Of a DNA stretch of 64,000 nucleotides, positions 12,048 to 63,049 are shown piece by piece. Origin of the DNA: an uncultured Gammaproteobacteria bacterium (GTDB taxonomy: Bacteria > Patescibacteriota > Microgenomatia > Daviesbacterales > UBA10151); assembly GCA_964393525.1 (NCBI GenBank), contig CAYMTV010000002.1:23001-87000 (forward strand), written 5' to 3'. The number at the start of each line of letters is the position of its first letter. The first letter of the stretch is position 1. Under the pieces are notes generated by a model, which made no database searches, was not told where the DNA came from, and saw only the letters and a list, made by a program, of their open reading frames with translations. A program made the translations under genes and the position numbers.

Positions 12048-12064
12048 CCCACACCGGGTGTGGG
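12048..12064 (-). terminator. Candidate intrinsic terminator or attenuator hairpin between ftsI and murE
   Basis: Near-perfect palindrome cccacaccgggtgtggg. On the minus strand it is followed by a T-rich tract (GTACTTTTGTAAAG). GC-rich stem in an AT-rich genome. Confidence 0.3.
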
Positions 12065-12089
12065 CAGAATGGACACATAGGGATTCATT

Positions 12090-12155
12090 CTGTTGGAGCA
12101 ATTCCGTAATGAGCAAAGCTCTTACTTCATTGCTCTGTTGGAGCAATTCCGTAAT
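12090..12155. repeat. 21-bp direct repeat (ctgttggagcaattccgtaat) present twice. One copy lies inside the ftsI 3' end (12135-12155) and one in the downstream untranslated region (12090-12110).
   Basis: Exact 21-mer seen twice, 45 bp apart. Confidence 0.8.
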
Positions 12156-34565: not shown

Positions 34566-35566
34566 TTTATTAAACTCCTGTACAAGCTGGCAGTTTCTTC
34601 AGCGCATTTTTCCCAACTAAAGAACTTAGCACGTTCCTCCCCTTTTTTTATTACAAAATCTTTTTCGCTTATAGCCTCTTCTATTCCTTTTTTAATTTGG
34701 CTCAGATCTGTGGGATCTACAATTATTGCCGCGTCTCCCGCAATCTCAGGCATTGATGAAACATTGGAGGTAACCACCGGACATCTGCAAGCCATTGCTT
34801 CAATTATTGGCAAACCAAAACCTTCATATAAAGTTGTATAGACTAAGCAATCGGCAGAAGAATATAATAGTGGCGTGTCATCTGCCGGAATGTAGGGTAA
34901 ATCTTCACCCATTATCACTAAATTATAACCATCAGATGCTTGTTTGATCCTTCTTAAATTTTTTCTTTCTCCGATTCCCCCTATTGCTAAAATAAAATGT
35001 TCCGGTAAGCTATATTTTTTCTTAAACTCAAAAACTTTGCGCTCGGGTTGAGGTTTATATATCTCTGAGACCCCCTCATAGATTATTACAATCTTTTCCC
35101 CAGGAATATTGGAAACTGACATTAAATCTTTTTTAGTACTTTCTGAAACTGCTATTACCATATCGATTTCTTTTTCTACTATTTTTAACCTTGTTTTATG
35201 AACTTCGGAAATTTTGGGATGAGACCAGTTTGGGAATTTTATTGGTACAAGGTCGTGATAGGTTGTTACTTTTTTTGCTTTGGTTTTTGGTTGAGTTCAT
35301 TCGGAGCTGTGGAAAATATCATTATTGCCAACAAATGATCCTATTGGAAATTTGCGGTATTTGTTAAACAGAATTTCAAGCAGTGTCGGCGGCATTGGAA
35401 ATTTTGCCACATTTTTAAGACTTCCTTTGTATGGCTTTCGGAGGGACGAATAAAAGAATTTCATTTGAAAATCCCTAATCCTTGACAGTTGTTCTGCAAG
35501 TTTATCGGTGTATACACCTACTCCCCCGCCATGGGCACTTTGTGAGATGTCAAATCCTACTACCAT
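34562..35566 (-). pseudogene. GT4-family glycosyltransferase interrupted by one in-frame TGA (at 35297-35299). The N-terminal fragment is 35297-35566 and the C-terminal fragment 34562-35161, in the same frame.
   Basis: Reading through the TGA by hand gives a continuous GT4 protein: ...NNDIFHSSE*TQPKTKAKKVTTYHDLVPIKFPNWSHPKISEV...EGFGLPIIEAMACRCPVVTSNVSSMPEIAGDAAIIVDP. There is no frameshift, only this single stop. Confidence 0.55.
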
Positions 35567-38823: not shown

Positions 38824-39975
38824 CTAAGAAATATAATAACCTCTGGAAAAAAACATTAATAGAATAAAAAGAAGTACTGGAGAGATTATGAAGTAAATTA
38901 ATTTAAATATTTTATTCTCTATTAAGCCTATGGTAATAAAAATGGGGAATAAAACAATCGTGTATCTTGGAAGGCCTGAAAAAGTACCACTTAATACCGG
39001 AATTAAAAATGCAACTAGCGAGTATATCAGGTAAGAAGTTTTTATTTTTTTCTTCCAAGCAACAACAAGCATGCAGATAACAAAGACAAAAACAGATATC
39101 TCAAGCATAGCAATCCACCACTCAAGTTGAGTTGCAGGTAAATAAAAAAATATTTTCAAATATCTAAATATGGTTTGGAAAGGAAAGACTATTGTATCAA
39201 GTGATCTGCTGTTTCCCTGCGCACCATGGGCATAGAGAAAATTTAAAAAATCTCCCCATTTAAAATATGAATATAGAGAAAAACCTATTAAACCAAAAGG
39301 CACTAAAAGAATACTGAAAAATTTATACATATTTTTTCTCATTTTAAGTAATTCATATAAAATTGCAGGGAAAATGGAGATTCCAACAAGCCTTGTACTT
39401 GTAAGTAGCATTCCAGCAAGACCTGCAAAAAACCAGTTACCTTTTTCTATAAAATAGAACACAACAAGTACTAGCATCAAAAATAGACTTTCAGAATAAA
39501 TTGAACCAAAGAAAAATGACGTCGGAAATAGAGCCATTGAAACTGTTGCTATTTTGGCAGCTTTTTCTGAATACTCCTTTTTAACTAATTTATAAAAAAA
39601 TATTAGCGCTAAGAAGAAAAATAAATTTGCCAGAATTAAACCGCTTAAAAATTGGACTTCGCTATATGCAATCTTATCTCCCAGTAACCCCGATAGAAAA
39701 TTTATTAAGATAGGGAACGAAGGAAAAAAACGACCATCAGTTGTATAGCCATTTCCTGCAATAGAAAGATAATGCACCCCATCAAAATTAGCCCATGGGT
39801 ATACTAAGTAAGATTTAATAAAAGAGTCACTACTTACAAAGTTTAAGACATTGGTAAAATCACTATTTGCCCTATATTGAATATTTTGGCTAAAAATTAA
39901 TGGGATAAAAAGAATTATTCTCCAAATAAGAAAAAATACTAAAACAAATTTGAAATCCTTCATGGATAACTTCAA
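38824..39975 (-). CDS. GT-C mannosyltransferase-like membrane protein (PIG-V / Mannosyltransf_2-like)
   Basis: YPWANFDGVHYLSIAGNGYT resembles the W-D-x-x-H-[FY]-x-x-I-A-x-x-G-Y signature of the PIG-V/GT76 family. About 10 TM helices. Confidence 0.55.
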   Translation of the reverse strand: MKLSMKDFKFVLVFFLIWRIILFIPLIFSQNIQYRANSDFTNVLNFVSSDSFIKSYLVYPWANFDGVHYLSIAGNGYTTDGRFFPSFPILINFLSGLLGDKIAYSEVQFLSGLILANLFFFLALIFFYKLVKKEYSEKAAKIATVSMALFPTSFFFGSIYSESLFLMLVLVVFYFIEKGNWFFAGLAGMLLTSTRLVGISIFPAILYELLKMRKNMYKFFSILLVPFGLIGFSLYSYFKWGDFLNFLYAHGAQGNSRSLDTIVFPFQTIFRYLKIFFYLPATQLEWWIAMLEISVFVFVICMLVVAWKKKIKTSYLIYSLVAFLIPVLSGTFSGLPRYTIVLFPIFITIGLIENKIFKLIYFIISPVLLFILLMFFSRGYYIS

Positions 39976-39976: not shown

Positions 39977-41671
39977 TCATTCTTTTAATTCCACCTGATA
40001 TAAATTGCATACTTCAAAGCATCCTTTTTGTACCTCGGTTACCTTAAAATTTTTAAATATATCATTGTAGGAAACATGTAGATAACCTTCATTCCCAATT
40101 CCATACCTTGAGAGGTAAAGAGGATATCCTGCCTTAATTTTTTGCTCGTAAAGCGAAACTAAAGATGGGTAATTATATTGACCCCAGACTTTCTCTTTAT
40201 CCAGGTAAAATTCCTGATTAATAGATAAAGGCAGCAGACTATATTTTCCATTAGAAAAAAAGTCTATATAGTAAGGAGGTGCTGCTGATATTACAAACGG
40301 CTTTTTACCGAAATCTTTTTGATTATTGAAAAAATCATTTAGATTTCTAACTGAGATATAATTCCAGGGGGTTTCGCTGTATTTTAAATTCAGTACGATC
40401 TGATTTTTAAGCCTAATGATATTTGTTGCAAAATAAAAAATAGCTACTATGCTAAATACAAGGTAAATTAAATACCTAATCTTATGTTTTTTAACTAAGG
40501 TAAACAAAATCACAAAAAATAATCCAAATCCAGCAGTTAAGCTTGGGATAACATGATAAATATATCTGGCATCGACCGAATAAAAAGTTGATATAAAAAA
40601 AACTACACTAAATATAAAAAGGAGTAAAGCAAGGCTTATAAATCTGTAGTCTTTTTTAAACATCCCTAAAATTAATCCTAAAAGACCCAGCTTACCTACA
40701 AACGCGGGAACTATTGGAGTAAAATCCCACAAAAACCTCATTGAACTTCCATTAAGCGCACCCCAATAAGCAGTGAGATTGTCTTTAAAATAGGCTAGAG
40801 AAAACCAGGCATTTCTGGCTGTGGAAGAAGTTTGTATAGCAGATTCATTTAATTGATGATTTGGAATAATCAGTGCAAGCAAACGTAGAAGGTTAGCAAA
40901 AAGGTTTACTCCTTTAATCAAATATTCATACAAAGAAAGTAGTCCCACAAAGATAAATAAAGAGCCAAAAAAAATGCCATAAGTTTTCACTTTTAAAGAT
41001 CTCTTTTTAATTTCAAACCAAATTTTTAAACTATATAAAAAAGCTGATATGAATACCAAAGGGATACTGGCATATTTGGTTGCATAAAACCCGACAGTTA
41101 CAAAAGCAAAAATTATTAAAGTTTTTGCTGATACCTTGGAGGTAAGTAAAAAGAGTGAGAGGTTAAACAAAAATAAAAACAGTGTTTCTGCCATTGCCAG
41201 ATTAGGAAACCAATATATAAAGTAATTTGAAACGTATAAAAATAAACCAAACCCCAGGATAAAAGGATTTTTACTAATTTTTTTCAAAAACAGATAAAAA
41301 AGAAAAAGTGCTCCTAAACTTAAAGCTATGTTAATAAAATAGAATACCCTTGGGTCTTCTCGGTTTATAAGAAGTATTGGTAAAAGGCTCACCGAATATA
41401 GCGGAGGAACCCTGGGATTTATCTTTCTGTCTTCTCTTTGAAGGTACATCCCCTTCCCTTCTAAAAAGTTTATTGCCGGATTTATATAATGAAGGGTATC
41501 GGGGTATGGTTCTAAATTGGAAATCAAGTTTCTTTCTGAAAAAGGATTTTTTAAAAGTAACAATCCTAACAAAAACAGACTTCCTATAAATATTATTAGT
41601 GGATATCTTCTTGTAAAAAAATCTTTATACATACTACAATAGTGTGTACAATTTAATGCAAAAACTATCAA
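39977..41671 (-). CDS. GT-C-like polytopic membrane protein with a C-terminal soluble domain
   Basis: About 11 TM helices; first loop EPYPDTLHYINPAINFLEGKG (acidic/aromatic loop). C-terminal ~130 aa is soluble. The true start is possibly the internal Met at ~41632. Confidence 0.45.
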   Translation of the reverse strand: MIVFALNCTHYCSMYKDFFTRRYPLIIFIGSLFLLGLLLLKNPFSERNLISNLEPYPDTLHYINPAINFLEGKGMYLQREDRKINPRVPPLYSVSLLPILLINREDPRVFYFINIALSLGALFLFYLFLKKISKNPFILGFGLFLYVSNYFIYWFPNLAMAETLFLFLFNLSLFLLTSKVSAKTLIIFAFVTVGFYATKYASIPLVFISAFLYSLKIWFEIKKRSLKVKTYGIFFGSLFIFVGLLSLYEYLIKGVNLFANLLRLLALIIPNHQLNESAIQTSSTARNAWFSLAYFKDNLTAYWGALNGSSMRFLWDFTPIVPAFVGKLGLLGLILGMFKKDYRFISLALLLFIFSVVFFISTFYSVDARYIYHVIPSLTAGFGLFFVILFTLVKKHKIRYLIYLVFSIVAIFYFATNIIRLKNQIVLNLKYSETPWNYISVRNLNDFFNNQKDFGKKPFVISAAPPYYIDFFSNGKYSLLPLSINQEFYLDKEKVWGQYNYPSLVSLYEQKIKAGYPLYLSRYGIGNEGYLHVSYNDIFKNFKVTEVQKGCFEVCNLYQVELKE

Positions 41672-42381
41672 TTATTATACCTGTTTATAACGAAGAAATG
41701 TTGATTGGCAAAACAATCAGTTCTGTAGCCTCTGCAGATTCTCTTAATATGGTTAAAGAAATTATAGTGGTTGATGATGGCTCGGTTGATAAGACCAAAG
41801 AGGTAACAGAATCATCGATAAAAGATCATAAAAAAGAGAAGTCTTTAATATTCAAAACAATCTTCAGGCCGGAAAATTCCGGTAAAGGCGCCAGTGTTAA
41901 AGAGGGTATACTTGCATCCACCGGAGACATCATCATAATCCAAGATGCTGATTTAGAGTACAATCCGGAAGATTACCCATTACTTCTGGAACCCTTCATA
42001 AGAAATCAGGCCGATGTGGTTTATGGATCAAGATTCATCTCTAATAGACCACACCGCGTTTTATATTTTTGGCATTATGTAATCAATATGGCTTTAACAA
42101 CTTTTTCCAATATGTTAACCAACTTAAACTTAACCGATATGGAAACAGGTTATAAAGCCTTTAAAGGGGAGCTTATTCGGAAAATTTCCAAGGATTTGGA
42201 GAGTAAAAGGTTTGGCTTTGAACCTGAAGTTACGGCAAGATTGGCAAAAATTAAAGGCATTAAGTTCTTTGAAGTTGGAATTTCTTATAGTGGTAGAACT
42301 TACGAGGAGGGTAAAAAAATTGGTTGGGTGGATGGGATGAGGGCCATATGGGAGATAATTAAATTCAATTTGTTTGCTTAA
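41644..42381 (+). CDS. Polyprenol-phosphate glycosyltransferase (GT2, DPM1/GtrB/ArnC-like)
   Basis: LSIIIPVYNEE...VVDDGSVDKT; DADLEYNPED (DxD motif); ~240 aa soluble GT-A of the Dpm1 type. Confidence 0.8.
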   Translation: MYNLMQKLSIIIPVYNEEMLIGKTISSVASADSLNMVKEIIVVDDGSVDKTKEVTESSIKDHKKEKSLIFKTIFRPENSGKGASVKEGILASTGDIIIIQDADLEYNPEDYPLLLEPFIRNQADVVYGSRFISNRPHRVLYFWHYVINMALTTFSNMLTNLNLTDMETGYKAFKGELIRKISKDLESKRFGFEPEVTARLAKIKGIKFFEVGISYSGRTYEEGKKIGWVDGMRAIWEIIKFNLFA

Positions 42382-44153
42382 CTATCCTTAAAAACTTCAA
42401 CCAGCAAAAACTCTTCATCATTAAAAAGTACTTTTACTTGTGAATTTTTCATTATCCACTGGCTGATTAATGTAGCTTTATCTTCATATAAATGACCTTT
42501 ATTAAGCTTAAAGAATTTGACATTTTTATTGTTTAAAAGTTGCCAAAAAACTTCCGGGTCATTTTTTTCAATTGCAGTAAAAAGCTGATTTTCGTATTCT
42601 TCATATTCTCTAGGAATATACCCGCTATACCCATTCACCATTAGGCATTTATGTTTGATGGAAGCCAGCTGAAATTGAGTTCGATAGGTGAGGTTCTCTA
42701 TAACATTATTAGGGGTAATGAACCTTGACATTGGGTACTCTAAAAGTACATGCCCTCCGGCTGCGCAACTTTGCTCGATTGTTTTATAAACTGTAGGATA
42801 GAACTCTTTTTTTCCAGTCAGCTTGTTAACCGGAGCAATTTCCATTAAAAATAGACTCGCAAAAACAGCCACCAATATTAACCCTTTCTTGCTTTTAATT
42901 CCCAGTTTTTTTATTCTGCGAAGCAGAAGTAACTTGTTCATTCCCAGTAAAGCAAAGTAATTTAACCCTAAAAATAAAAGCCACATCCATCTGGCGTTTG
43001 CACGGATAGGCTCAACAAGGGGAACAAACTTTAGGATTAAATAATATGGAAGCGGGATAACTAAATAAGTGCCGTTGACGCTTAATCTCGGTCCTAATGA
43101 AAATAAAAACCCAACGATAATCAGAATAATAAAATAAAAGTTATAAAACGATAAATTAAAACTTAGGGATGAAGCTTTTTTCTCTTTGGTAATATTCAGC
43201 ATGCCCAGTAAGGCTAGAGAGAGTAAAATCACCCCGGGAAAAGCTCCTGATTCGCCAACCGTATGTCTGTTAAAACTATTCCATAAACTCATTATTTTGG
43301 AGGTTGAAGCAATACTGTTAAAGTGGGTCGTAAACAAATAATCAGTTAAATGGGCAGAATATGTAATATACTCACTTGGATCACGGACAATTCCATAATA
43401 CTTCTTTATCTCAATATACTTTAGTAGAAAGGGGCCTGAAAAAACGATAAAGGTAATTAAAACGAGAGCTCCATGAATAAAAATTTTCCAAATTCCTTTT
43501 CTCTGCAAATATTGGCTTACTATCCTAAGCGTATACCAAATACTTACAGCAATTAGCATAAATACACAAATGTATACGCTTGATAGAAATTCAAGCGAAA
43601 TCATTAAACCAATGATTAAAGCATTTTTTATGGAGAATTTTTCTTTAAACAAAAAATATAAGCCAAATAAAAATGGCCACAGGTTAATAATCTGAAAATG
43701 ATTGAACTCCATAAAAAAGTAGGGAGAGAATGCTGTTATTAGTGTTCCGAAAAAGACTAAAAGCCTATCAGAAAAAAATACTCTCCAAAGTAACCAACTT
43801 GCCCAAATATTTAAAAAGATTGTCGTAATAAACACTAAATTAAAAACTAATATTTGGTTTGATGAAAAAAGGTTAAAGATAAACCCTAAGGCTGATGCTG
43901 GCAAAAGCAGGTCAGAAAATAACATGGTTCCCTCTAAAGGATAGAAAATATTTGAATTAAAGAAACTACTAAATTGGAGTTTGCTTACATGATCGATGTT
44001 TTGATAGATTATCCAAACCATTAAAGGATAATCCAACCAATCTATTAGATTAGTACTAATATTAAATAGCAATGATCGAAATATAATGGCTGTTAAAACT
44101 ATAAGTAACAAAATGATCGAAATAATTCTCAAATGTTTTTTTAAGTAAAGCAT
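42378..44153 (-). CDS. Large polytopic membrane protein with a C-terminal soluble domain. It is a paralog of 47798-49579. Putative GT-C/YfhO-like.
   Basis: 591 aa. The N-terminal loop DWLDYPLMVWIIYQNIDH...YPLEG parallels SWYDELFIIWIYQNNTRH...YPFKY in the 47798 paralog. About 12 TM helices followed by a ~150 aa soluble tail. Confidence 0.4.
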   Translation of the reverse strand: MLYLKKHLRIISIILLLIVLTAIIFRSLLFNISTNLIDWLDYPLMVWIIYQNIDHVSKLQFSSFFNSNIFYPLEGTMLFSDLLLPASALGFIFNLFSSNQILVFNLVFITTIFLNIWASWLLWRVFFSDRLLVFFGTLITAFSPYFFMEFNHFQIINLWPFLFGLYFLFKEKFSIKNALIIGLMISLEFLSSVYICVFMLIAVSIWYTLRIVSQYLQRKGIWKIFIHGALVLITFIVFSGPFLLKYIEIKKYYGIVRDPSEYITYSAHLTDYLFTTHFNSIASTSKIMSLWNSFNRHTVGESGAFPGVILLSLALLGMLNITKEKKASSLSFNLSFYNFYFIILIIVGFLFSLGPRLSVNGTYLVIPLPYYLILKFVPLVEPIRANARWMWLLFLGLNYFALLGMNKLLLLRRIKKLGIKSKKGLILVAVFASLFLMEIAPVNKLTGKKEFYPTVYKTIEQSCAAGGHVLLEYPMSRFITPNNVIENLTYRTQFQLASIKHKCLMVNGYSGYIPREYEEYENQLFTAIEKNDPEVFWQLLNNKNVKFFKLNKGHLYEDKATLISQWIMKNSQVKVLFNDEEFLLVEVFKDS

Positions 44154-47797: not shown

Positions 47798-49579
47798 ATG
47801 ATTAAACAATTAGCAGCTATTATATTAGTCCTTTTTCTAATTTTAAACTCCTGGAGAAATATTATCACCAATATTAATACCCATCTGCCTAGCTGGTACG
47901 ATGAACTGTTTATAATCTGGATTTACCAAAACAATACCCGCCATTTCTCAGAGTTTGATTTTGCAAATATCTATGAAACAAATGCCCTTTACCCATTCAA
48001 ATATACGCTATCTTTTGCAGAACATATGTATTTTCCCTCCTTACTTGTATTGGTTATAAATTTTTTTACCAAAAGTCCCATTGCTCAATACAATATCTTA
48101 CTAGTACTAAATCACATCTTAATATTTTTATCTTCCCTCCTGTTTTTTAATAGAATCTTTAAAAACTTCTCTGCAGCTTTATTATCGGCATTCTACACCA
48201 GCTATTCGCCATACTTTTTTGTCCAGCTGGGCCATTTTCAGATGGTATTCTTTTGGCCGCTTTTTTTTAGTTTGTATTCTCTTTCCAGTTATTTCGAGAA
48301 AAGGAGAGTCGTACTACTTTTAGCCAGTGGTGTTTTTGCCGGTTTTCAATTTTTATCTTCAGTTTACTTAGGAGTAATTGGGCTGACCATTATTTCTTTA
48401 TGGTTTTTGATTGAGCTAATTACAAAACTTAAAATTTCCTCATTTATATACCTTAAAGAATATTTCCAGACCTTAAAAGAATTTTTCGTAAAATATCTGA
48501 TTTTTTTGTTAACATTTTTTTTAATTTCATTTATTTCAATATACGGATACATACTGGTCAGTAATGAGTATGATATTAAAAGAGAATACGAAGAGTTTCT
48601 AATTTACTCTGCCGATTTGCTTGATTATTTATTTCCTCCAAGAAATCAAAACTCGCTCCTTTATACCTCTGACCTTTTTACTAACTTACAAAATTATAAC
48701 CGGCATATAGAAGGTGAATTTGCCGCCTTTCCCGGAATAATAGCAATGTTTTTTGCGATATATATGATACTGCCAAAAATCAATATCAAGAAAAAAGTCT
48801 TAATTTTCCAGTTTTTATTAGATCAAAGAACCATCTTCTCTGTTGTCTTAATTATGATTGGAGTCATCTTTTCGTTGGGACCAAGACTATTTATAAATGG
48901 CGTATTTTCTGACCTAATCCTTCCGTACGCTGCGGTTTTAAAATCATTTCCCGCATTTGGAATAATAAGGGTACTAGCCAGGTGGTATTTTTTAGTAGTA
49001 CTTGGATTTTCAATATTATTTGGTTTAGGGTATATAACACTGCAGAAAAGACTCTTCAAATTTTACAATCCTGCAAAAAAATTATTTCCTATTCTAATCT
49101 TTTTATTGCTTACAGCTGAGTTTTATTCACTACAACCTTTTGGAAGCATTTATAAAGATTGGTCTGATAATTCATATGAATTTGTAAAAAGGGATATTTG
49201 TAAGAAACAAGGAAGTGTACTTTTAGAGTACCCTTTCCATTATAGAAATTTAGACGCGGATCTCATCAAAGATGTAAATTATATGGCTCAAATTCTTCTA
49301 AACTCAACTCAACATAGATGCAGAATTTTAAGTGGATATTATGGATTTGAGCCACCAAAATATATTAAAATCCGGGATGAATTTGGTAATGGTTTTGACA
49401 AAAAAGACATAAAAATTATAGATGACTTAAATATAGACTATGTTAAATTTAATAACTATGCCATTACAAAGGAAGAAAAAAACTTTATTGAAAAAAATAA
49501 CTTGCTGGCGGGTTTTAAAAAAGTTTATGAGGATAAAAATACTACGATATTAAAAGTTGGACTAAATGGAACTAATTAA
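47798..49579 (+). CDS. Large polytopic membrane protein, paralog of 42378-44153 (putative GT-C/YfhO-like)
   Basis: 593 aa with the same architecture and conserved N-terminal loop as the 42378 gene. Confidence 0.4.
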   Translation: MIKQLAAIILVLFLILNSWRNIITNINTHLPSWYDELFIIWIYQNNTRHFSEFDFANIYETNALYPFKYTLSFAEHMYFPSLLVLVINFFTKSPIAQYNILLVLNHILIFLSSLLFFNRIFKNFSAALLSAFYTSYSPYFFVQLGHFQMVFFWPLFFSLYSLSSYFEKRRVVLLLASGVFAGFQFLSSVYLGVIGLTIISLWFLIELITKLKISSFIYLKEYFQTLKEFFVKYLIFLLTFFLISFISIYGYILVSNEYDIKREYEEFLIYSADLLDYLFPPRNQNSLLYTSDLFTNLQNYNRHIEGEFAAFPGIIAMFFAIYMILPKINIKKKVLIFQFLLDQRTIFSVVLIMIGVIFSLGPRLFINGVFSDLILPYAAVLKSFPAFGIIRVLARWYFLVVLGFSILFGLGYITLQKRLFKFYNPAKKLFPILIFLLLTAEFYSLQPFGSIYKDWSDNSYEFVKRDICKKQGSVLLEYPFHYRNLDADLIKDVNYMAQILLNSTQHRCRILSGYYGFEPPKYIKIRDEFGNGFDKKDIKIIDDLNIDYVKFNNYAITKEEKNFIEKNNLLAGFKKVYEDKNTTILKVGLNGTN

Positions 49580-52670: not shown

Positions 52671-53456
52671 TTGATGTTGAGACTTTTTTCAACTCCCTTT
52701 ATATCTTTTCGGTACTTACTCTCCCAGCTTACCTTAAGAGAAATTAAAGCTCGCTACAAACAGTCCATTCTGGGATACGCCTGGGTTTTGTTAAATCCGC
52801 TCATACAGCTTTTAGTATATTCTTTTGTATTTTCTATAGTTTTTAAATTCCCGATGGAGAACACCCCATACTCAATCTTTTTATTCATAGGACTTTTGCC
52901 TTGGATATACTTACATACATCACTTTCACAAGCTGCACTGGTTTTAGTTGATAACTCAGATCTTTTGAAAAAAGTCTATTTTCCAAGAGAAATACTGCCT
53001 TACTCTGTGATACTTGCTAAAAGTATTGATCTATTTTTTGCATCAATGCTTTTGATTGCATTTATGTTTTTTTATAAGCTCCCATTTTATCCCAGCATGT
53101 TTATGATAGTTCCAGTTTTTTTAATCCAGGTTATTTTGATGGGTGGTCTAGCACTTTTTTTGTCCGCAGCTAATTTATTCTACAGAGACATCCAGTATTT
53201 AACTAATCTTATACTTTTGATGTGGATGTATTTAACGCCTGTGGTTTACCCATTATCTTTAGTGCCAAAGGATTTCCTTTGGGTTTATAGTCTAAACCCA
53301 ATGGTTGGGATTATCGAGGGTTATAGAGCCGCAATTTTTAATCGACCCCCGGATTATCCTACTATTGTCTGGTCAGTTTTAATATCTTTGATTATATTTA
53401 TCTTTGGTTTTTGGGGATTTAAAAAAAGTGAAAAAGTTTTTGCAGATATTGTCTAA
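52671..53456 (+). CDS. wzm: ABC-2 type polysaccharide export permease (Wzm/TagG-like)
   Basis: LTLREIKARYKQSILGYAWVLLNPLIQLLVYSFVF is the canonical Wzm N-terminus; 6 TM helices. Confidence 0.85.
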   Translation: MMLRLFSTPFISFRYLLSQLTLREIKARYKQSILGYAWVLLNPLIQLLVYSFVFSIVFKFPMENTPYSIFLFIGLLPWIYLHTSLSQAALVLVDNSDLLKKVYFPREILPYSVILAKSIDLFFASMLLIAFMFFYKLPFYPSMFMIVPVFLIQVILMGGLALFLSAANLFYRDIQYLTNLILLMWMYLTPVVYPLSLVPKDFLWVYSLNPMVGIIEGYRAAIFNRPPDYPTIVWSVLISLIIFIFGFWGFKKSEKVFADIV

Positions 53457-53459
53457 ATT

Positions 53460-54194
53460 ATGGATGAAATAGTCATTAAATTAAAAGACATTGTAAAAGA
53501 GTTCTATCTGCAAGATGATAGAACTTTTAAAGAATTCCTGCCTAATCTTCTTTTAGGCAAACCCTGGGCTAGGAAACTTACAGCTTTAGACAATATTTCT
53601 TTTGAGATTGCTCAAGGAGAAACCGTTGGGATTATTGGTAAAAACGGCGCAGGAAAATCTACTTTACTCAAGCTCATTGCAGGTGTGACTACCCCGACAA
53701 AAGGAAGCATTAAAGTAGCTTATAAAGTAGCTCCCTTGATTGAGGTGGGAGCGGGTTTCCACCATGAGCTGACGGGTTTTGAGAATATTTTCTTAAATGC
53801 TGCAATTTTAGGGATGAGTAAGAAAGAAATTGAAGCGATTGTAGGTAAAATAATCGAGTTTAGTGAACTTTCAGATTTTATTCATACTCCTGTTAAAAGA
53901 TATTCAACCGGTATGTACATGCGTTTAGGTTTTGCGGTTGCAATACACGTTAATGCACCAATTTTACTTATTGATGAAGTTTTGGCAGTAGGTGATGCAA
54001 TTTTTCAAAAAAAATGTATAAATGTTTTAAAAAAAATAAAACAGGATAAAGACAAAACAATTGTTTTTGTCAGCCACAATGAAGGGGCTGTAAAAAGTTT
54101 TTGTGAGCGGGTAATACTTTTAGATCATGGAGAGATAGTCAAAGACGGAAATCCGGAAGAAACTTTTAAAAAATACCACGAAATTTCAAGATGA
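53460..54194 (+). CDS. wzt: ABC transporter ATP-binding protein (Wzt/TagH-like). It has no C-terminal carbohydrate-binding domain.
   Basis: Walker A GKNGAGKST; Walker B ILLIDEVLAVGD; ABC signature region YSTGMYMRL; H-loop SHN. Confidence 0.88.
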   Translation: MDEIVIKLKDIVKEFYLQDDRTFKEFLPNLLLGKPWARKLTALDNISFEIAQGETVGIIGKNGAGKSTLLKLIAGVTTPTKGSIKVAYKVAPLIEVGAGFHHELTGFENIFLNAAILGMSKKEIEAIVGKIIEFSELSDFIHTPVKRYSTGMYMRLGFAVAIHVNAPILLIDEVLAVGDAIFQKKCINVLKKIKQDKDKTIVFVSHNEGAVKSFCERVILLDHGEIVKDGNPEETFKKYHEISR

Positions 54195-54195: not shown

Positions 54196-55065
54196 ATGGA
54201 AACTCAAATTATTAAACTTTACGTTTTGGCAGGTTTGAAAAAAATTTTAAGACCAATTGGTTCGGTACCCTTAGCTAGAAATCTTTATCCTATCTTAAGC
54301 GAATTCCTTAAAAACCACGGGGAAGTAATTGTTAATATTAAAGATCTTTGGAATTTTAAGATGTATTTAAATGTAACTGATGTAGGGCTAAGCCATATGT
54401 TACTCCTAAACGGGGAATATGAGAAACATGAAACCATACTACTTAAAAACTTAATTAAAAAGGGAGATGTTTTCTTAGATGTTGGAGCTAATTTTGGTTA
54501 TTATACCCTGCTGGCCTCAAAGTTGGTAGGTAAAACAGGAAAAGTTTTTTCTTTTGAACCGGACCCTTATAATTTTTCCATCCTGCAAAGAAATATTAAA
54601 ATAAACAACTGCGCTAATGTTTTATGCGTTAATAAAGCTGTTGGAGAAAGAGATGAAAAAATTTATTTCTACATAGATGCCGATAATCTTGGTCGGCACA
54701 ATATTATCTCAAATTGGAGTAACCATAAATTAAGTGTTGATAAAATCAGTTTAGATAATTTCTTTCAAAAAGGCATTAGGGTGGATCTTGTAAAAATTGA
54801 TATTGAAGGAGTGGAGGAACTTGCGATTTCAGGAATGAAAAAAATTATCCAGACTAACAAGCAAATCAAACTATTAATTGAATTTTTCCCGGAAAGGATA
54901 AGGCAAAATAAATTAAACCCAAATAATTTAAACAAACTTATTAACTCGTTTGGCTTCTCTATTTATGAAGTCAGACAATCAGGAATAACAAAAACTTCCT
55001 TTAATGAAGTTCTCAAAAGGACACGGGGAAAAGGCGAATTAATGAATATATTGCTGAAGATGTAA
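54196..55065 (+). CDS. FkbM-family SAM-dependent methyltransferase (candidate glycan chain-terminating modifier)
   Basis: DVGANFGYYTLLAS...FSFEPDPYNF is typical of the Methyltransf_21/FkbM family. Immediately downstream of wzm-wzt. Confidence 0.8.
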   Translation: METQIIKLYVLAGLKKILRPIGSVPLARNLYPILSEFLKNHGEVIVNIKDLWNFKMYLNVTDVGLSHMLLLNGEYEKHETILLKNLIKKGDVFLDVGANFGYYTLLASKLVGKTGKVFSFEPDPYNFSILQRNIKINNCANVLCVNKAVGERDEKIYFYIDADNLGRHNIISNWSNHKLSVDKISLDNFFQKGIRVDLVKIDIEGVEELAISGMKKIIQTNKQIKLLIEFFPERIRQNKLNPNNLNKLINSFGFSIYEVRQSGITKTSFNEVLKRTRGKGELMNILLKM

Positions 55066-55066: not shown

Positions 55067-57247
55067 TTAGTCATCTTTTAGAAAACGGTAAGTTTTAAAA
55101 CCCGAGTATATTAAACACAAAATTAAACTGGCAAGCAGTATTAAAAGTGGTAGTTTTGGTATATCCCAATAGATTAGGTATTTAAACCACCAAAAATCAG
55201 GGGTTCTTTCATAAACTTGAGTATGCATCTCCCAAAATCTCCAGGGATCAGTAATGCTTTCTCCGTATGTATTATATTTAACACCCATCATAGCAGGACC
55301 CAAGGAAGAGACATAAGGGAAATCAAAAGTTTCTTTATTGACATCATTACCGTCAATAGCAAAAGAGATTAAACTAAAAATTTGAGGGACATATTTTTTT
55401 GGTTGGGTATTTTTATTTTCGTATTTCGAAGGGTCATCTCTGTATTGGTTTAACTCACTGGACTGGCTCATTGGGGATATAGTTTCAAAACTTACTGTCA
55501 GCCAATTATCTTTATTTTTAAGCAGGTTCCCGGGAATATTTAGATCAATCAGTTTCCTTTCTGCAGGCAGAAACTTTTCACTTTCAAGTATAACATTATC
55601 ATTTAATGATACTTTGATTATTGCTGAATTTGAGGCTTCCTCAATTGGATGGTTAATTAGACCCAGTGAAATTTTTTTGACAGGAAACCTAGTACGGTCA
55701 TCAAATAAGATGTCTCCTTTTCTCTCAATTACCCTCCATCTTTCATTCCCCACCAGGAATGGGAAATCTATCCCGTCATGGAAACGGACATTATAAAGCC
55801 CATGGTCAATAATTTGAGGAAGCGCTTGAAAAAGTTTAACTAGTTCTCTTGAGAGCATAATAACCGGCGAATATCTGGGAATGAAATTGCTATAAGTAAA
55901 ATTTGTAAATTCAGTCGAGTTTACATAGAACTTTTCCTGAAGATCATGGTATTTAATTTGATATGGCATTAAAATACCTAACATATTAATATAAAAGCCT
56001 ATTAATAATAGCGGGAAAAAGATGAATAACTTCTGGGGTTTAGACAGCTTAACAAAAATCCAACTAACTATTAAAATCCCAAAAGGTATTAAAGGGCTAA
56101 GGTACCTTGGCCCCCAACTGGATTCCCCATGCCAAATCGCGGCCACCCCCCTTTGAGCATCAAAGGTACGTTGGGATGCAAAAAATATAATGGTTATTAT
56201 TGAAAGAATTAGAAATACCAAAGTTTCCGGATAAATTACTTTTTTTATTCTATGCCAGAAAAAGATAGTTACTAAAAGGATTGGTGAGTATAGAAAAATA
56301 CTCCTTCCAGGGGAAAATAATTGACCATATATCCCTTCAAAAAAAACTGGTTTTGGTATATCTAAAAAAGGCGCTACTCCTCTGCCTGCTATGTTTAATG
56401 GATTTGCTAAGTTTTGGGTTGTACCTGAGCGAAGATTTTCAAACCAGAGATAAATGATAAGAAGTGGTAAAGTTCCCAGGAAAAAGATTAGCAAATTGCT
56501 TAGCAAAAATTTTATCTTTAAACTGCCTATGAATTTTTTAGGTGATGTGAAGATAAGGCGAAGTTTCGACAAAATCAGGATATAAATACCAAGTGGTATA
56601 ACTGCAAGTAAAAATGTCTGGTTATAAGTAATACTTACCATCCCAAAAGAGGCCCCGGCAAATATTAAAAACAACTTTTTTTTAGTTTGAAAATATTTTT
56701 TTATAAGGAAAAATGCTAACACTAAAAAAGCTGTAAACATCATATGAGGGAAGGAATATTTAGCGTATGGAAGTAGATTGGTTGTAAACAACCCTGCAAA
56801 ACTTATTAATAATGCCTGTTTTTTGGATAATCCCAATTCTAAAAGATACAAAAATATGGTTACTCCTAAAACAGCAGCAAAAAATCCATTAGTAAATGAT
56901 GCTGTTAAAAGTATTAACCAGTCATTTTCTAAGGGAAAATGCACCGGAGGGGATATGTTATAGATCTTATAGACCATATCGGTTATAGCAACAGCCGGTA
57001 AATACGCTAAGGAATATCCTAAACCTGTAGGGCTGTAGGTTTTGCCGTCTCCAGCTACATAAGTACTCATATGGATGTTCTCCCGTATGTTGTAGCCATA
57101 CTCGGGTGCTGTGGGTTCCCCTTTGTAATAAATATTTCTGGCAACAGCTAAATACTGAAAACCATCCTGGGAGTCAATCACCCCGGAGGATAAAATTAAA
57201 AAAGTTGCCAGTAAACTAAAGAAATAGTAAGTGATGAATTTTTTCAT
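55067..57247 (-). CDS. GT-C fold membrane glycosyltransferase-like protein (726 aa), tandem paralog 1
   Basis: First loop SGVIDSQDGFQYLAVARNIYYKGEP (acidic GT-C loop); ~12 TM helices; ~300 aa extracytoplasmic C-terminal domain plus a terminal TM. Confidence 0.5.
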   Translation of the reverse strand: MKKFITYYFFSLLATFLILSSGVIDSQDGFQYLAVARNIYYKGEPTAPEYGYNIRENIHMSTYVAGDGKTYSPTGLGYSLAYLPAVAITDMVYKIYNISPPVHFPLENDWLILLTASFTNGFFAAVLGVTIFLYLLELGLSKKQALLISFAGLFTTNLLPYAKYSFPHMMFTAFLVLAFFLIKKYFQTKKKLFLIFAGASFGMVSITYNQTFLLAVIPLGIYILILSKLRLIFTSPKKFIGSLKIKFLLSNLLIFFLGTLPLLIIYLWFENLRSGTTQNLANPLNIAGRGVAPFLDIPKPVFFEGIYGQLFSPGRSIFLYSPILLVTIFFWHRIKKVIYPETLVFLILSIITIIFFASQRTFDAQRGVAAIWHGESSWGPRYLSPLIPFGILIVSWIFVKLSKPQKLFIFFPLLLIGFYINMLGILMPYQIKYHDLQEKFYVNSTEFTNFTYSNFIPRYSPVIMLSRELVKLFQALPQIIDHGLYNVRFHDGIDFPFLVGNERWRVIERKGDILFDDRTRFPVKKISLGLINHPIEEASNSAIIKVSLNDNVILESEKFLPAERKLIDLNIPGNLLKNKDNWLTVSFETISPMSQSSELNQYRDDPSKYENKNTQPKKYVPQIFSLISFAIDGNDVNKETFDFPYVSSLGPAMMGVKYNTYGESITDPWRFWEMHTQVYERTPDFWWFKYLIYWDIPKLPLLILLASLILCLIYSGFKTYRFLKDD
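56612..56976. repeat. 365-bp near-identical segment (1 mismatch), copy 1. Its partner lies at 58732-59096, offset 2120 bp.
   Basis: I compared the two stretches directly. They are identical except g/a at 56923 vs 59043. They encode the identical ~121 aa segment (KIYNISPPVHFPLENDW...ITYNQTF) of the two GT-C paralogs. Confidence 0.9.
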
Positions 57248-59379
57248 GATTTTAAAGCAAACAATATCTTCAGAGTCTTATTACCGGAGTATATTAAACT
57301 CAAAATTAAAGTAGCAAGTAATATTAAAAGTGGTAGTTTTGGTATATCCCAATAGATTAGGTATTTAAACCACCAAAAATCAGGGGTTCTTTCATAAACT
57401 TGAGTATGTAATTCCCAAAATCTCCACGGGTCAGTAATGCTTTCTCCGTATGTATTATATTTATATCCCATCGCCGTACCTAAGGAAGAAACATAAGGAA
57501 AATCCAGGCTTTCTAAATTGATAGGGGTATCATTAATTGAAAAAGCTATTAACCCTAAGATTTGCTTATGGTTTTTTATAACAGTTTGGTCTTTATAGTT
57601 TACATTAATCACAAGTTTATTATCCTTATCTTTTAAAAGTGATTGTTTAACCGGTAAAACAAAAATATTTCTTTCCTTTGCCTCAAGGGTTAACGGCTGA
57701 TCCGATAATGACTGACCATTAAGAGAGATATTTACTATCGCTTGGGAACCTGACTCCGTAATCGGATGATTTATAAGTCCGAAGGTTAATTTTTTAACCG
57801 TGTCCTTTTTAAAATTATCAAATGATATATAACCTGTTCCTTCAATTACCCTCCATCTCTCCGGTCCAACCGGAAATGAAAAATCTATACCGTCATAGAA
57901 TTTAGCATTATATTTACCATGGTCGATAGTTTGCGGGATGGATTGCGGAAGGGCTCTTAACTTTTTTGACATCTGTATTATAGGCGAAAACCTGGGGATA
58001 AAATTGCTGTAAGTATGGGTGGTAAACTCTGTAGCATTGACAAAAAAATTAGGTTGTAAATCATGGTATTTAATCTGGTAAGGCATAACCACTCCAAGCA
58101 TATTAATATAAAAACCTAAAATCAGAAGCGGAAGGAAAATAAATAGTTTCTGATACCTGGATAGATTTTTAAAAATGCTACCGATTATCAATACCCCAAA
58201 AGGCAAAAGAGGTATTAAATATCTGGGACCCCAGCTCGATTCACCATGCCAGAGTCCGGCAATTCCCTGATCAGGGCCGCCCACACTATACTGAGTAGCA
58301 TAAAAAAGTACATAAATTGCTGATATGGCAATGAAAACCAGAGTCTCGTTTAAAGCTATTTTTTTGATCTTGTTCCAGAATAAGATAATTAGTAGAAAGA
58401 TCGGGGAATATATAAAGATACTCCTCCCGGAAGAGAATAATTGACCATACAACCCTTCAAAAAAGATTATCTTAGGAAGTCGTTGTAAGGGGATTGCCGT
58501 CCTGCTTGCCAGAACAAAAGGGTTTGCCAGGTTTTCAGTCCCCCCTGCCCTTAGATTTTCAAACCAGAAATAGACTACTAAAAGAGGTAAAAATCCAAGC
58601 GTAAAAATAAGCAGATTTTTTAATAAATGGTTTTTCCGAAAGCCCGTTAAGAAGTCTGTTACTGATGAAAGGCTAAATTTAGGTTTTGATAACAAAAGAA
58701 AATATAACCCTAAAGGGATTGCAGAAAGTATAAATGTCTGGTTATAAGTAATACTTACCATCCCAAAAGAGGCCCCGGCAAATATTAAAAACAACTTTTT
58801 TTTAGTTTGAAAATATTTTTTTATAAGGAAAAATGCTAACACTAAAAAAGCTGTAAACATCATATGAGGGAAGGAATATTTAGCGTATGGAAGTAGATTG
58901 GTTGTAAACAACCCTGCAAAACTTATTAATAATGCCTGTTTTTTGGATAATCCCAATTCTAAAAGATACAAAAATATGGTTACTCCTAAAACAGCAGCAA
59001 AAAATCCATTAGTAAATGATGCTGTTAAAAGTATTAACCAGTCATTTTCTAAAGGAAAATGCACCGGAGGGGATATGTTATAGATCTTATAGACCAGGTC
59101 AGTTACCGCCACAGCTGGCAACATCGCTAAGGAAAAACCTAATCCAGTAGGACTATAGGTATTGCCATCTTTTCCTAAATAAGTACTTAGGTGTACGTTC
59201 TCCCTCCTATTATATTCATATACTGGTGCAGTTGGCTTCCCTTTGTAATAAATATTTCTGGCAACAGCCAAATACTGAAAACCATCCTGTGAATCAATAA
59301 CCCCGGAAGAAAGAAGAGAAAAAGTAGCTAATAGGAAGAAGAAAAAATATATCAGGAGCTTTTTCACGACTTTTTCCAT
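57244..59379 (-). CDS. GT-C fold membrane glycosyltransferase-like protein (711 aa), tandem paralog 2
   Basis: Same architecture as 55067-57247. The N-terminal 210 aa and C-terminal ~55 aa are near-identical to the neighbour; the central extracytoplasmic domain has diverged. Confidence 0.5.
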   Translation of the reverse strand: MEKVVKKLLIYFFFFLLATFSLLSSGVIDSQDGFQYLAVARNIYYKGKPTAPVYEYNRRENVHLSTYLGKDGNTYSPTGLGFSLAMLPAVAVTDLVYKIYNISPPVHFPLENDWLILLTASFTNGFFAAVLGVTIFLYLLELGLSKKQALLISFAGLFTTNLLPYAKYSFPHMMFTAFLVLAFFLIKKYFQTKKKLFLIFAGASFGMVSITYNQTFILSAIPLGLYFLLLSKPKFSLSSVTDFLTGFRKNHLLKNLLIFTLGFLPLLVVYFWFENLRAGGTENLANPFVLASRTAIPLQRLPKIIFFEGLYGQLFSSGRSIFIYSPIFLLIILFWNKIKKIALNETLVFIAISAIYVLFYATQYSVGGPDQGIAGLWHGESSWGPRYLIPLLPFGVLIIGSIFKNLSRYQKLFIFLPLLILGFYINMLGVVMPYQIKYHDLQPNFFVNATEFTTHTYSNFIPRFSPIIQMSKKLRALPQSIPQTIDHGKYNAKFYDGIDFSFPVGPERWRVIEGTGYISFDNFKKDTVKKLTFGLINHPITESGSQAIVNISLNGQSLSDQPLTLEAKERNIFVLPVKQSLLKDKDNKLVINVNYKDQTVIKNHKQILGLIAFSINDTPINLESLDFPYVSSLGTAMGYKYNTYGESITDPWRFWELHTQVYERTPDFWWFKYLIYWDIPKLPLLILLATLILSLIYSGNKTLKILFALKS
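58732..59096. repeat. 365-bp near-identical segment, copy 2 (partner of 56612-56976)
   Basis: See copy 1. Confidence 0.9.
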
Positions 59380-60899
59380 GATAGCATTAACTTTGCAAGC
59401 TTTATATCATAAATCTTAAGTCTGAATCCAAGACCTGCGAAAATTACCGTATAGATTATTCCGCTTAAAATAAATTCAAACCAATTCTTGGGTGAAAAAT
59501 GAATTAACCTTATTAGTATGAAAAACGCCAGGGAAAAGATAAAAATTTTTAGGTAAAACTGATACGGTATCTTAAAATCCACAAACTTTTTAATTATAGA
59601 AGTGAATACAATACAAAGCCCGAATCCAGCGAAAGTACTGGTAATAGCTGCACCAATAACCCCAAATTGCCAAATTAAGATTATGTTTAAGCAAATATTT
59701 ATAACTGCCACAATTGTTAATACACGCAACCTTTCTTTAACCTTTCCAATCCCTAATGTAATAATCCCTGTAATTGAAGAAGTCAACACGCCAATATAAG
59801 CTAAAGAAAATATCGACAGGGAGATTTCTAAAAAATCCAGCCATTTTAGACCAAAAATCAAAGCTATTGTAGAGGATGGAAACATAATAACAAACAATGA
59901 AAAATAGACACCGATAAAGGGGATAATTTCGTAAACTTTACTTATTAGGTACCTTAACTTTTTTTTCTCTCCCTCGTAAAGGTGTGAAACCAAGGGAAAG
60001 AGGATGCTGTTTAATGGCGAAAACAATACGAGGGGGATTGAGGCAATTGGAACAACAACATTATAAATTCCTACCTCCTTAACCCCTTTAAGTAACGTTA
60101 AAAGAAAAATATCTGATGACACAAGCAATGAATAAATAAAAGTGGTTAAAAAAGCCGGTAAGGCGTATTTGTATATCGATATAAATATTTGATGGTCCCA
60201 AGACAGGTTATTGGCTGATAATATCCGGTGTCTAGTCCAAAGCAAATACAAAAAAACGACAGTTATAATTGAATACCCAAAAATCCAGGACAGGGCATAA
60301 AAGATGGGCGCATTTAGGTCTACTGCCAGAAAAGTCAAAGAGAAAAATAAAACTAAAACTGACCTTAAGACAATTATTAGTGAGTAGTATTTTGGTTTTT
60401 GCAGTCCGGTAAAAATCTGTAGAATACTATTTAAGATGCTGTTAATTATTAAAAACACACAGAAAACATAAATTAGATACTCGCTTCCAGAAACTTTAAA
60501 ATAGTTCTTAGCTAAAAATGGCGCCAGTATTATCAAAATAAGGGAAATTATCATCGAGACTGCAAATTGGATAATTTGGCCATATGTATAGGCATTCCAG
60601 ACTTTTTTATACTTTTTTGACTTAAAGTATTTGGGGATAAAGTAAACAATAGCTTCCCCAAAACCCAAATCCGCGTGGACAGAAATTATGCTAAAAAAAC
60701 CAAATACCGCATAAAACAAACCGTAATCTTCAACCGACAGTGACCTAGAATATAACACCCTGATAAAATAGGCCAACACTGCCCCTAAAAAGCTTAGAAC
60801 TAGAACTATTACACTCCCCCTAATAACATTTTCTGAAAAAGACATATTGCCAAGTATAACTAACTTAAACACTTTTTGTACATTAATTATTTTCCACAA
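59364..60899 (-). CDS. wzx: Wzx-like polysaccharide/oligosaccharide flippase (MOP superfamily)
   Basis: About 14 TM helices with a Polysacc_synt-type N-terminus (IRGSVIVLVLSFLGAVLAYFIRVLYSRSLSVEDYGLFYAVFGF). The true start is probably the internal Met (MSFSEN) near 60845. Confidence 0.7.
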   Translation of the reverse strand: MWKIINVQKVFKLVILGNMSFSENVIRGSVIVLVLSFLGAVLAYFIRVLYSRSLSVEDYGLFYAVFGFFSIISVHADLGFGEAIVYFIPKYFKSKKYKKVWNAYTYGQIIQFAVSMIISLILIILAPFLAKNYFKVSGSEYLIYVFCVFLIINSILNSILQIFTGLQKPKYYSLIIVLRSVLVLFFSLTFLAVDLNAPIFYALSWIFGYSIITVVFLYLLWTRHRILSANNLSWDHQIFISIYKYALPAFLTTFIYSLLVSSDIFLLTLLKGVKEVGIYNVVVPIASIPLVLFSPLNSILFPLVSHLYEGEKKKLRYLISKVYEIIPFIGVYFSLFVIMFPSSTIALIFGLKWLDFLEISLSIFSLAYIGVLTSSITGIITLGIGKVKERLRVLTIVAVINICLNIILIWQFGVIGAAITSTFAGFGLCIVFTSIIKKFVDFKIPYQFYLKIFIFSLAFFILIRLIHFSPKNWFEFILSGIIYTVIFAGLGFRLKIYDIKLAKLMLSWKKS

Positions 60900-61828: not shown

Positions 61829-63049
61829 TTAAGATTTGTTTTCTATATCTTTAAACTCAGGTGTCAGAAAAACTCTTGCCTCTATTTCATCAGCAATTCT
61901 TTCAGAAGCTTTGCCATCTGGTTTATATCTTTCCATTCTTCTTTGCAGCAATCTTTTATAATCATCATCCAAAAGGACACCATTTAGCACATTTCTCATA
62001 TCTTCTAAATTAGTAATAAGTGGACTAGTTTTATCCTCAATAACTGGCACCCAAAGTCCTTCCATAGCTGGATGTTCTCTGAGAATTTGTGGTATAACTA
62101 CACTTCCAACAGGCACTTGCCAAGCAGCAGCCTGTAATGCGATGGTTGATCTCTCCTGAAATAAGGCACTTGAGGCTGCTATTACTAGGTTAGCATCTGA
62201 TACTAAATCTGAGGTTGCATAAATTAGTCGCCTGGAAAAAGGACTTAATAATTCTTGGTAAACTCTAATATTTTCTTTGTCAGCAGGGTGAAATCTCACT
62301 GCCAACATCCAATCCAATAATTCTAAATCTCTTAACCCAGAAAGAAAAACTTTAAAAGATTCTACTGTCCCTTTTCCAACTTGCCCAAACCAGGTGATTA
62401 AATCAACGTTTTTTGGCACTCCTAACTTATTCCTAATCTCTTCCCAAATCTTGGTTTTATCTGCATTTGCGATACTATCAAAAGCCGGCTGGCCTAGAGC
62501 CAATACTCTATCAGAAGTTATTGGATAACCTTCAAGCTTTAAAAGTTCAGCTTCCTTTGCCTGCTCATTCATGACAAATAAAATTCCGGGAGCGGCGTTT
62601 GGATTAGTTCTGATTTTTTCACCCAGAGAATCTATATATGCAGCCGGATAATCCTCAACTGCAAAGGTTGGGATACCTCTTTCCCTGCCAAATGCGTTTA
62701 AAGTAGCATCAAAATCAGGGTTAGAAGACATGCCGGTAATCATTGCATCTGGCTTCAATCTTTCTACTCTGGACAAAGGATTAACTGACCTTGAGCTATT
62801 AAATCCTGCAGAACGAAAAATACCTTCAGCTCTTCCTCTTAACAGCCCATAGACTTCCCAACCTCTTCTATTTAGTTCCAACGCAACTGGCAGGATAGCG
62901 TTAGATTGACCAGTATCCATAGCTCCAACAACTGCTATCTTAGGCTCTCTTTCCTTATTATTTGGAGCAGAAATTAAAAGTAATTTTGATTCCTGAAAAC
63001 CTGGGTCGAAAAAGCCAAAAAATTCTGGTGACAAATTAATTCTACTCAT
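61829..63049 (-). CDS. GT-B-like protein resembling the TagB/TagF (Glyphos_transf) polyol-phosphate transferase / capsule family
   Basis: C-terminal RFHP followed by TSDLVSDANLVIAASSALFQERSTIALQAAAWQVPV resembles the TagF HP motif plus D..L...D.LITDYSS..fD...L.KPVI. N-terminal Rossmann-like KIAVVGAMDTG. Confidence 0.4.
   Translation of the reverse strand: MSRINLSPEFFGFFDPGFQESKLLLISAPNNKEREPKIAVVGAMDTGQSNAILPVALELNRRGWEVYGLLRGRAEGIFRSAGFNSSRSVNPLSRVERLKPDAMITGMSSNPDFDATLNAFGRERGIPTFAVEDYPAAYIDSLGEKIRTNPNAAPGILFVMNEQAKEAELLKLEGYPITSDRVLALGQPAFDSIANADKTKIWEEIRNKLGVPKNVDLITWFGQVGKGTVESFKVFLSGLRDLELLDWMLAVRFHPADKENIRVYQELLSPFSRRLIYATSDLVSDANLVIAASSALFQERSTIALQAAAWQVPVGSVVIPQILREHPAMEGLWVPVIEDKTSPLITNLEDMRNVLNGVLLDDDYKRLLQRRMERYKPDGKASERIADEIEARVFLTPEFKDIENKS

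Follow-up and report, generated by a model that had tools for sequence, protein, structure and literature searches.

Two adjacent genes on the minus strand of contig CAYMTV010000002.1 (assembly GCA_964393525.1), here called A and B, are in all probability ancient tandem paralogues of a GT-C-fold glycosyltransferase family, which lie in a surface-glycan region and have been patched by homology-dependent gene conversion within the genome. We analysed a stretch of 64,000 nucleotides (nt) of this contig, hereafter the window, and coordinates refer to it unless another locus is named. The pair and the gene upstream of it are arranged as follows:

55067..57247, minus strand: gene A, an open reading frame (ORF) of 726 amino acids (aa), the downstream, 'A-type' member of the pair
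57244..59379, minus strand: gene B, an ORF of 711 aa, the upstream, 'B-type' paralogue of A
57244..57247, minus strand: ATGA overlap of the stop codon of B with the start codon of A, read directly from the sequence
59364..60899, minus strand: Wzx-type flippase gene (Pfam Polysacc_synt, E 1.5e-21)

Both ORFs are present as an earlier note on this DNA had described them, adjacent on the minus strand and with a common architecture, and their proteins are 67% identical. The ATGA overlap makes translational coupling of B and A likely. Because the 3' end of the flippase ORF runs 16 nt into B, and B in turn overlaps A, flippase-B-A reads as a single transcription unit with the flippase first. A and B each retain every one of the 89 columns that do not vary in the family alignment, which is why both genes look functional.

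Within the pair, we distinguished two conversion tracts, T1 and C, and a possible third one, N, located in regions encoding the following parts of the proteins:

56612..56976, minus strand: conversion tract T1, A copy (A aa 91-212, the end of the first extracytoplasmic loop and about transmembrane helices TM2-TM5)
58732..59096, minus strand: conversion tract T1, B copy, at register +2120 to the A copy
55091..55289, minus strand: older conversion tract C, A copy (aa about 653-718, the last extracytoplasmic helices and the C-terminal transmembrane helix)
57274..57472, minus strand: conversion tract C, B copy, the probable acceptor (register +2183)
57119..57187, minus strand: possible short tract N, A copy (aa 21-43, SSGVIDSQDGFQYLAVARNIYYKG, including the D25/D28 motif)
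59239..59307, minus strand: possible short tract N, B copy (offset +2120)

The two copies of T1 differ, as the earlier note had stated, by exactly one base in 365 nt (G/A at 56933, position 59053 in B), which leaves exact runs of 321 nt and 43 nt. Just outside both edges of the tract, identity falls abruptly to ~60-65%, with mismatches at about one position in three; over the remainder of the genes outside the tracts, the DNA identity between A and B ranges from 45 to 70%. T1 was also considered as an inserted mobile or repeat element, and this was ruled out, since the tract is in-frame coding sequence with 74-80% aa identity to family orthologues. Tract C is 91% identical over 199 nt and contains an exact run of 87 nt at 55139-55225; blastn reported it as 89% over 234 nt, and weaker similarity reaches 55324 beyond a 3-nt indel. 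The 3' ends had previously been described as about 95% identical, and the block is real, with 94% identity between 55140-55290 and 57323-57473 (register +2183), but its coordinates in B had been placed 11 nt away, where identity is only 19%. The copies of tract N show 4 mismatches in 69 nt. Their third-position identity is 83%, compared with 48-65% in the control pairs introduced below, over 23 codons only, and N is suggestive only as a third conversion event because its peptide is strongly conserved family-wide, indeed the most conserved of the family. A blastn comparison with itself of the 64-kb window, which covers all but ~29 kb of the 93-kb contig, returned two repeat pairs only, with no further repeat of A/B and no extra donor copy.

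Divergence was computed for each segment from the codon alignment of A and B, with segments numbered in aa of A. In T1 (aa 91-212), the synonymous divergence (dS) is 0.013, with two differences in 366 nt and a third-position identity of 99%, whereas in aa 213-640 synonymous sites are saturated (proportion of synonymous differences, pS, 0.76; third-position identity 43%) and the nonsynonymous divergence (dN) reaches 0.36. The segment containing tract C (aa 641-718) shows a dS of 0.43 and a third-position identity of 80%. The longest identical run between A and B is 321 nt; in 5000 permutations with codon position preserved, the longest run averaged 20 nt and never exceeded 47. Syntenic orthologous pairs from four other genomes (L060, L062, L063 and L064) served as controls. 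At the T1 codons, the third-position identity of these pairs is 49-53%, as it is in cross-genome comparisons; for tract C, it is 47-51%, against 83% in A/B; and their longest identical runs span 18-26 nt.

The tracts fall on conserved islands of the whole family, as judged by family-mean conservation. The earlier note had proposed that the membrane core is being converted while the extracytoplasmic domain diversifies. This description is too simple because the second half of the membrane domain (aa 213-430) has a proportion of nonsynonymous differences (pN) of 0.26, almost as high as that of the extracytoplasmic aa 431-640 (0.31).

To place the duplication in time, we relied on relatives of the pair and on segment-wise phylogenies. 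A protein search retrieved 269 relatives, several of them paired on one contig, and neighbour-joining trees with 200 bootstraps were run for each segment on defined taxon sets. At aa 431-640, A and B were sisters in 0/200 replicates, and a split between B with the B-position orthologues and A with the A-position orthologues was recovered in 200/200. In T1 (aa 95-212), A and B were sisters in 200/200, with the ortholog split in 0/200 and B on the A-type side in 0/200. In tract C (aa 645-718), A and B were sisters in 199/200, the ortholog split was found in 0/200, and B fell on the A-type side in 191/200. Because the tree of aa 431-640 disagrees with those of T1 and C, the A/B duplication is old and the blocks represent later copy-overs. 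Since B carries A-type sequence in tract C, the copying there likely went from A into B. Orthologous B-A pairs occupy five syntenic loci (L060, L062, L063, L064 and L068), and DNA identity within these pairs is 64-67%, or 72% where the pair has a conversion tract of its own. Gene conversion, which the earlier note had invoked, is strongly supported by the low dS of T1 compared with saturation outside the tracts, by the 321-nt run and by the sisterhood of A and B within the tracts.

Similar events were found in other members of the family. One or more full-length family genes were present at 67 loci, some of which represent the same contig fetched twice; within the fetched flanks, 52 of these loci are single-copy, 13 contain a pair and 2 contain three genes. 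Paralogue pairs of three other genomes (L068, L078 and L001) carry independent conversion tracts. In the tandem pair of L068, from a groundwater-type metagenome of the Joint Genome Institute (JGI), both genes begin with the same 404 nt, counted from the ATG (4908-5311 and 7001-7404), and the DNA upstream is unrelated. The inverted pair of L078 (6944-9049, plus strand, and 11492-13612, minus strand) shares ~180 nt at 98-100% identity at the start of the beta-sandwich, and copies 1 and 3 of the three-gene array in L001 (3053-5161 and 8836-11103) have two tracts at 92-98%. A second, independent assembly of the L068-type population contains an identical A gene, and the repeat is, therefore, real there; its contig (L147:1) ends exactly at the ATG, which is the start of the tract. 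This break at the repeat edge bears out the earlier suggestion that such duplications are assembly hotspots, given that the tracts do fragment assemblies. Additionally, a single-copy gene located between the flippase and the ABC-2 permease (P0003, L065:2820-4973) is a B/A hybrid: its aa 20-90 are sister to B of the window in 165/200 bootstraps, and its aa 431-640 fall in the A-type clade. Such a gene would be the expected product of a deleting crossover between tandem B and A, or of conversion followed by loss.

The assignment of A and B to the GT-C fold rests on predicted structure because searches against sequence families were sub-threshold or irrelevant. In a Pfam scan, neither protein had a match at E <= 0.01, except for a sub-threshold DUF5985, so that neither is recognised as a member of PMT or PMT_2. 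In NCBIfam, the best curated match was NF047440, at 22.8 and 28.9 bits, under its 200-bit cut-off and, thus, outside that family. A PDB sequence search with A returned nothing relevant, and one with the profile of the 36-sequence family returned a single match at E 0.22, the unrelated CtsR. The AlphaFold model, built from the 36-sequence alignment (predicted TM-score, pTM, 0.83), predicts an N-terminal multi-helix membrane module, an extracytoplasmic beta-sandwich and a final membrane helix, and the multi-pass membrane module is modelled with the helix arrangement of GT-C enzymes. The orientation of the beta-sandwich is taken from GT-C homology, as the hydropathy scan was too coarse to fix the topology. 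Foldseek placed the predicted structure closest to EmbA/EmbB/EmbC-type entries (7bve and 7bvf; E 4e-6 to 3e-4; query TM-score 0.35-0.38). Five of the 36 family members match PMT and four match PMT_2, weakly (best E 1.7e-5 and 3e-6, respectively), and distant relatives of ~500 aa (P0192, P0222, P0251 and P0161) reach the gathering thresholds of Pfam PMT or PMT_2, and this chain of homology connects the family with the PMT/ArnT branch of GT-C. The earlier note was, thus, right about the GT-C identity of both genes, judging from the predicted fold, these intermediate relatives and an acidic motif. That motif and the domain that distinguishes the two types are encoded at:

57164..57175, minus strand: codons D25-S-Q-D28 of A, an acidic D-x-x-D motif directly after TM1
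55343..55795, minus strand: beta-sandwich extracytoplasmic domain of A, carbohydrate-binding-module-like (aa about 485-635), in the region that sets A-type against B-type

Across the 36 family members, A and B included, D28 of the motif I-D25-S-Q-D28-G shows no variation and D25 reaches a conservation of at least 90%. This place in the first extracytoplasmic loop, directly after TM1, is that of the catalytic Asp in GT-C enzymes, and D25 and D28 may, by analogy with GT-C structures, be the catalytic residues. The A/B distinction is concentrated at aa 541-630, where identity is 23-47% across types versus 39-74% within a type. From the predicted fold, we infer that A and B are GT-C enzymes that would add sugars from polyprenyl-phosphate donors to a surface glycopolymer at the outer face of the membrane. 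The adjoining GT2 genes, Wzx-type flippase and ABC-2 transporter are compatible with the use of such donors, and the type-specific beta-sandwich would set an acceptor specificity that differs between A and B.

An exhaustive profile search of a database of 1.84 billion representatives retrieved 79 clusters at E <= 1e-30, a number that rises to 1,319 at E <= 1e-10 and to 3,812 at E <= 1e-3, with the full architecture in just a few dozen of them. Named genomes with close relatives belong to Candidatus Daviesbacteria and other Microgenomates, and distant relatives of the membrane module occur in Chloroflexota, Eisenbacteria and others. Many records of metagenome-assembled genomes (MAGs) titled 'uncultured Gammaproteobacteria bacterium' (binchicken, SRP co-assemblies) carry a family gene in the same type of locus (L004, L005, L009, L011, L013-L016, L019, L021 and L023). 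These titles look like placeholder or incorrect taxonomy, the gene being otherwise typical of Microgenomates.

Several other explanations of the near-identical blocks were weighed. The earlier note had taken the pair for a recent tandem duplication, whose genes would have diverged very fast in the middle while conversion kept the ends alike. The two copies are indeed adjacent, share orientation and architecture and contain a near-identical block, but the saturation of synonymous sites outside the tracts (pS 0.76), the grouping of A and B with different orthologues at aa 431-640 (200/200) and the B-then-A arrangement kept in five other genomes refute a recent origin, and we regard it as very improbable. 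Selection on the DNA or RNA, through an embedded regulatory element or RNA, or extreme constraint on the protein could also hold two copies identical, and T1 and tract N do lie where the protein family is best conserved. However, the same codons share only about half of their third positions in the pairs of the four control genomes and in cross-genome comparisons alike (49-53%), and the nucleotides of T1 are conserved nowhere outside this genome. Because the permutations and the control pairs exclude selection on protein or DNA as the cause of the blocks, this explanation has next to no probability.

A further possibility is that the tracts were imported from a closely related strain by homologous recombination. 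A single genome cannot tell such allelic exchange from intragenomic conversion, and mosaicism between genomes does exist in the family, P0003 being B-like at aa 20-90 and A-like afterwards. Nevertheless, the closest relatives outside this genome have just 72-75% DNA identity in T1, and the simplest donor of a tract that is 99.7% identical to the other copy in the genome is that other copy itself, which makes import quite improbable. An assembly artefact, in which a chimeric join of strain variants or the collapse or over-polishing of a repeat made the identical block, is a somewhat more serious rival, although still an unlikely source of T1. The sequence seems to come from a metagenome, all its relatives being MAGs, and T1, with its 365 nt, exceeds the usual length of a short read. 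A second assembly of this genome did not turn up, and a related genome shows an assembly break at its equivalent repeat. On the other side, both ORFs run in frame over their full length without interruption, the tracts occupy homologous codons, and the flanks in each gene agree with the orthologues of its own type. With one repeat in two tandem genes, the assembled order is the sole linear path that uses all unique segments. Moreover, one mismatch is kept inside T1, tract C, older and 6-11% diverged, is impossible as a collapse, and three other genomes, assembled independently, carry comparable tracts.

The reading that we consider highly probable remains that of ancient tandem GT-C paralogues patched by gene conversion within the genome. 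An old duplication would have given rise to the A-type and B-type genes of a flippase-B-A unit, in a long surface-glycan region of a Microgenomates (Daviesbacteria-like) genome, that of an uncultured bacterium of groundwater type. One very recent conversion event would then account for T1, with its single difference in 365 nt. The 3' end would have undergone one older event or more, in which A-type sequence was brought into B over 199-234 nt that are now 6-11% diverged; the short patch at the catalytic motif (tract N) may be a third event. The conserved segments possibly offer enough identity to start recombination, and a swap within them would leave specificity unchanged, which we infer to be the reason for the positions of the tracts.

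Several points weigh against this reading. The presence of two copies and the exact match between them in T1 are as the assembly gives them, and two copies that were already very similar could have been made uniform during assembly or polishing. An exact-protein look-up of A and B in a contig collection found none on record, and a 25-mer of T1 had no exact match in JGI metagenome contigs, so that neither collection yielded an independent assembly of this genome. Tract N may result from constraint alone. At aa 213-430, B groups with the B orthologues in only 6/200 bootstraps, indicating that the history of B in this segment is more complex than a single old duplication. In the T1 region, no genome shows an A/B split, hence T1 allows no call of donor and acceptor. 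The function of A and B is predicted from the modelled fold and the gene context, and we know of no characterised member of the family.

The recurrence of tracts and the one hybrid gene also permit two bolder extensions, to which, taken together, we give a slim but not negligible chance, and which these observations carry no further. Conversion and unequal crossover might regularly reshuffle and resize the glycosyltransferase array of Microgenomates, in which case hybrid enzymes such as that of L065 may arise and may vary the surface glycan between strains. Or else the two proteins may be partners in an obligate heterodimer, like EmbA-EmbB or Pmt1-Pmt2, kept matched by conversion, so that the membrane segments common to both proteins are held alike.

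Among the closest known systems are GT-C enzymes of the PMT/ArnT type (Pfam PMT PF02366 and PMT_2 PF13231; CAZy GT39/GT83), such as yeast Pmt1-Pmt2 and Pmt4 and Cupriavidus ArnT. Pmt1 and Pmt2 form a heterodimer. The soluble part of A and B is a beta-sandwich resembling a carbohydrate-binding module with an extra C-terminal membrane helix, in place of the MIR domain or the periplasmic domain of ArnT. The mycobacterial arabinosyltransferases EmbA, EmbB and EmbC are the top Foldseek matches, although at low TM-scores, and no sequence similarity to them was detected. Emb proteins are GT-C enzymes encoded by adjacent paralogues, with extracytoplasmic domains of the carbohydrate-binding type, and EmbA and EmbB form a heterodimer; at about 1,050-1,100 residues, they are larger than A and B (726 and 711 aa). 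NF047440, the LA_3751/LA_3752 family of putative glycosyltransferases from Leptospira, matches A at E 3.6e-5 and B at 5e-7, and the distant relatives of ~500 aa at E 1e-12 to 1e-20, with scores of 23-71 bits overall against the cut-off of 200; it is itself an uncharacterised family.

Gene conversion between bacterial paralogues is well documented, and the A/B case is real but ordinary, upsetting no existing idea. The tufA/tufB genes are paralogues under gene conversion or concerted evolution. Further examples are the conversion among bacterial rRNA operons (PMC8022953), the long-lasting concerted evolution in 26 prokaryotic genes (PMC6053082) and the conversion in Mycobacterium tuberculosis repeats (PMC12046097). 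As in known concerted evolution, paralogues are closer to each other than to orthologues in certain segments, synonymous sites are identical there, and the pattern recurs in several lineages. Unlike it, conversion between A and B is patchy and not gene-wide, the old paralogues keep their type-specific regions, the tract positions differ among genomes, and the genes encode surface-glycan enzymes of Microgenomates. On GT-C enzymes in the Candidate Phyla Radiation, one full-text search of the literature gave no result.

The pair, thus, provides a clean and statistically solid case of homologous recombination in a small genome of the Candidate Phyla Radiation, in a gene family patched independently in at least four genomes. 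It also belongs to a GT-C family beyond current domain libraries, with two old subtypes that differ in their carbohydrate-binding-like domain. In practice, trees of the A/B family are to be built segment by segment, identical blocks are an unsafe basis for calling a recent duplication, and assemblers can break or mis-resolve at conversion tracts.

The genes around the pair follow a common order in L060, L064 and L068/L146, namely the flippase, the B-position gene, the A-position gene, a convergent ABC-2 transporter (ATPase and permease), a GT2 gene and a GT1 gene. The position of the flippase is kept in L001, L060, L062, L063 and L065, and the ABC-2 permease and ATPase are syntenic in L060, L062, L064 and L068/L146. 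In the window, which has the same overall order, two features lie downstream of A:

52671..54194, plus strand: ABC-2 permease and ATPase genes (Wzm/Wzt-like; Pfam ABC2_membrane and ABC_tran), convergent with A
54196..55065, plus strand: FkbM-type methyltransferase gene (Pfam Methyltransf_21, E 2.6e-18), ending 1 nt from the end of A

The methyltransferase gene stands after A in the window and between B and A in L062 (7063-8004) and L063 (7054-8004), where it is on the same strand as B and A, the copy in the window being on the opposite strand. It is absent from that place in L060 and L064. Rearrangement has taken place at this locus around the B/A pair.

From 20600 to 64000, the window is made up of about 43 kb of glycan-synthesis genes, nearly uninterrupted. 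They include several GT4 and GT2 genes, a DegT aminotransferase and a GFO/IDH/MocA oxidoreductase. Two GT-C genes of the PMT_2 type are found at 27427-28929 and 37416-38822, a PIG-V-like mannosyltransferase at 38824-39975, a Wzy_C-like protein at 28926-30362 and a TagF-like protein at 61829-63049, and a Polysacc_synt_2 dehydratase runs past the end of the window. A second large paralogue pair (42378-44153, minus strand, and 47798-49579, plus strand) encodes proteins of 591 and 593 aa that are 29-31% identical and have no Pfam match. Two further large ORFs, 35588-37432 (614 aa) and 39977-41671 (564 aa), likewise lack a Pfam match, and these four may represent further membrane glycosyltransferases not captured by the domain library. 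Finally, in the region 33450-35161, an ORF of 199 aa (34562-35161) is similar solely to the C-terminal half of the neighbouring GT4 genes, with 33% identity to 33450-34565 and 29% to 23060-24229, and could represent either part of a split gene or a duplicate that has been truncated.

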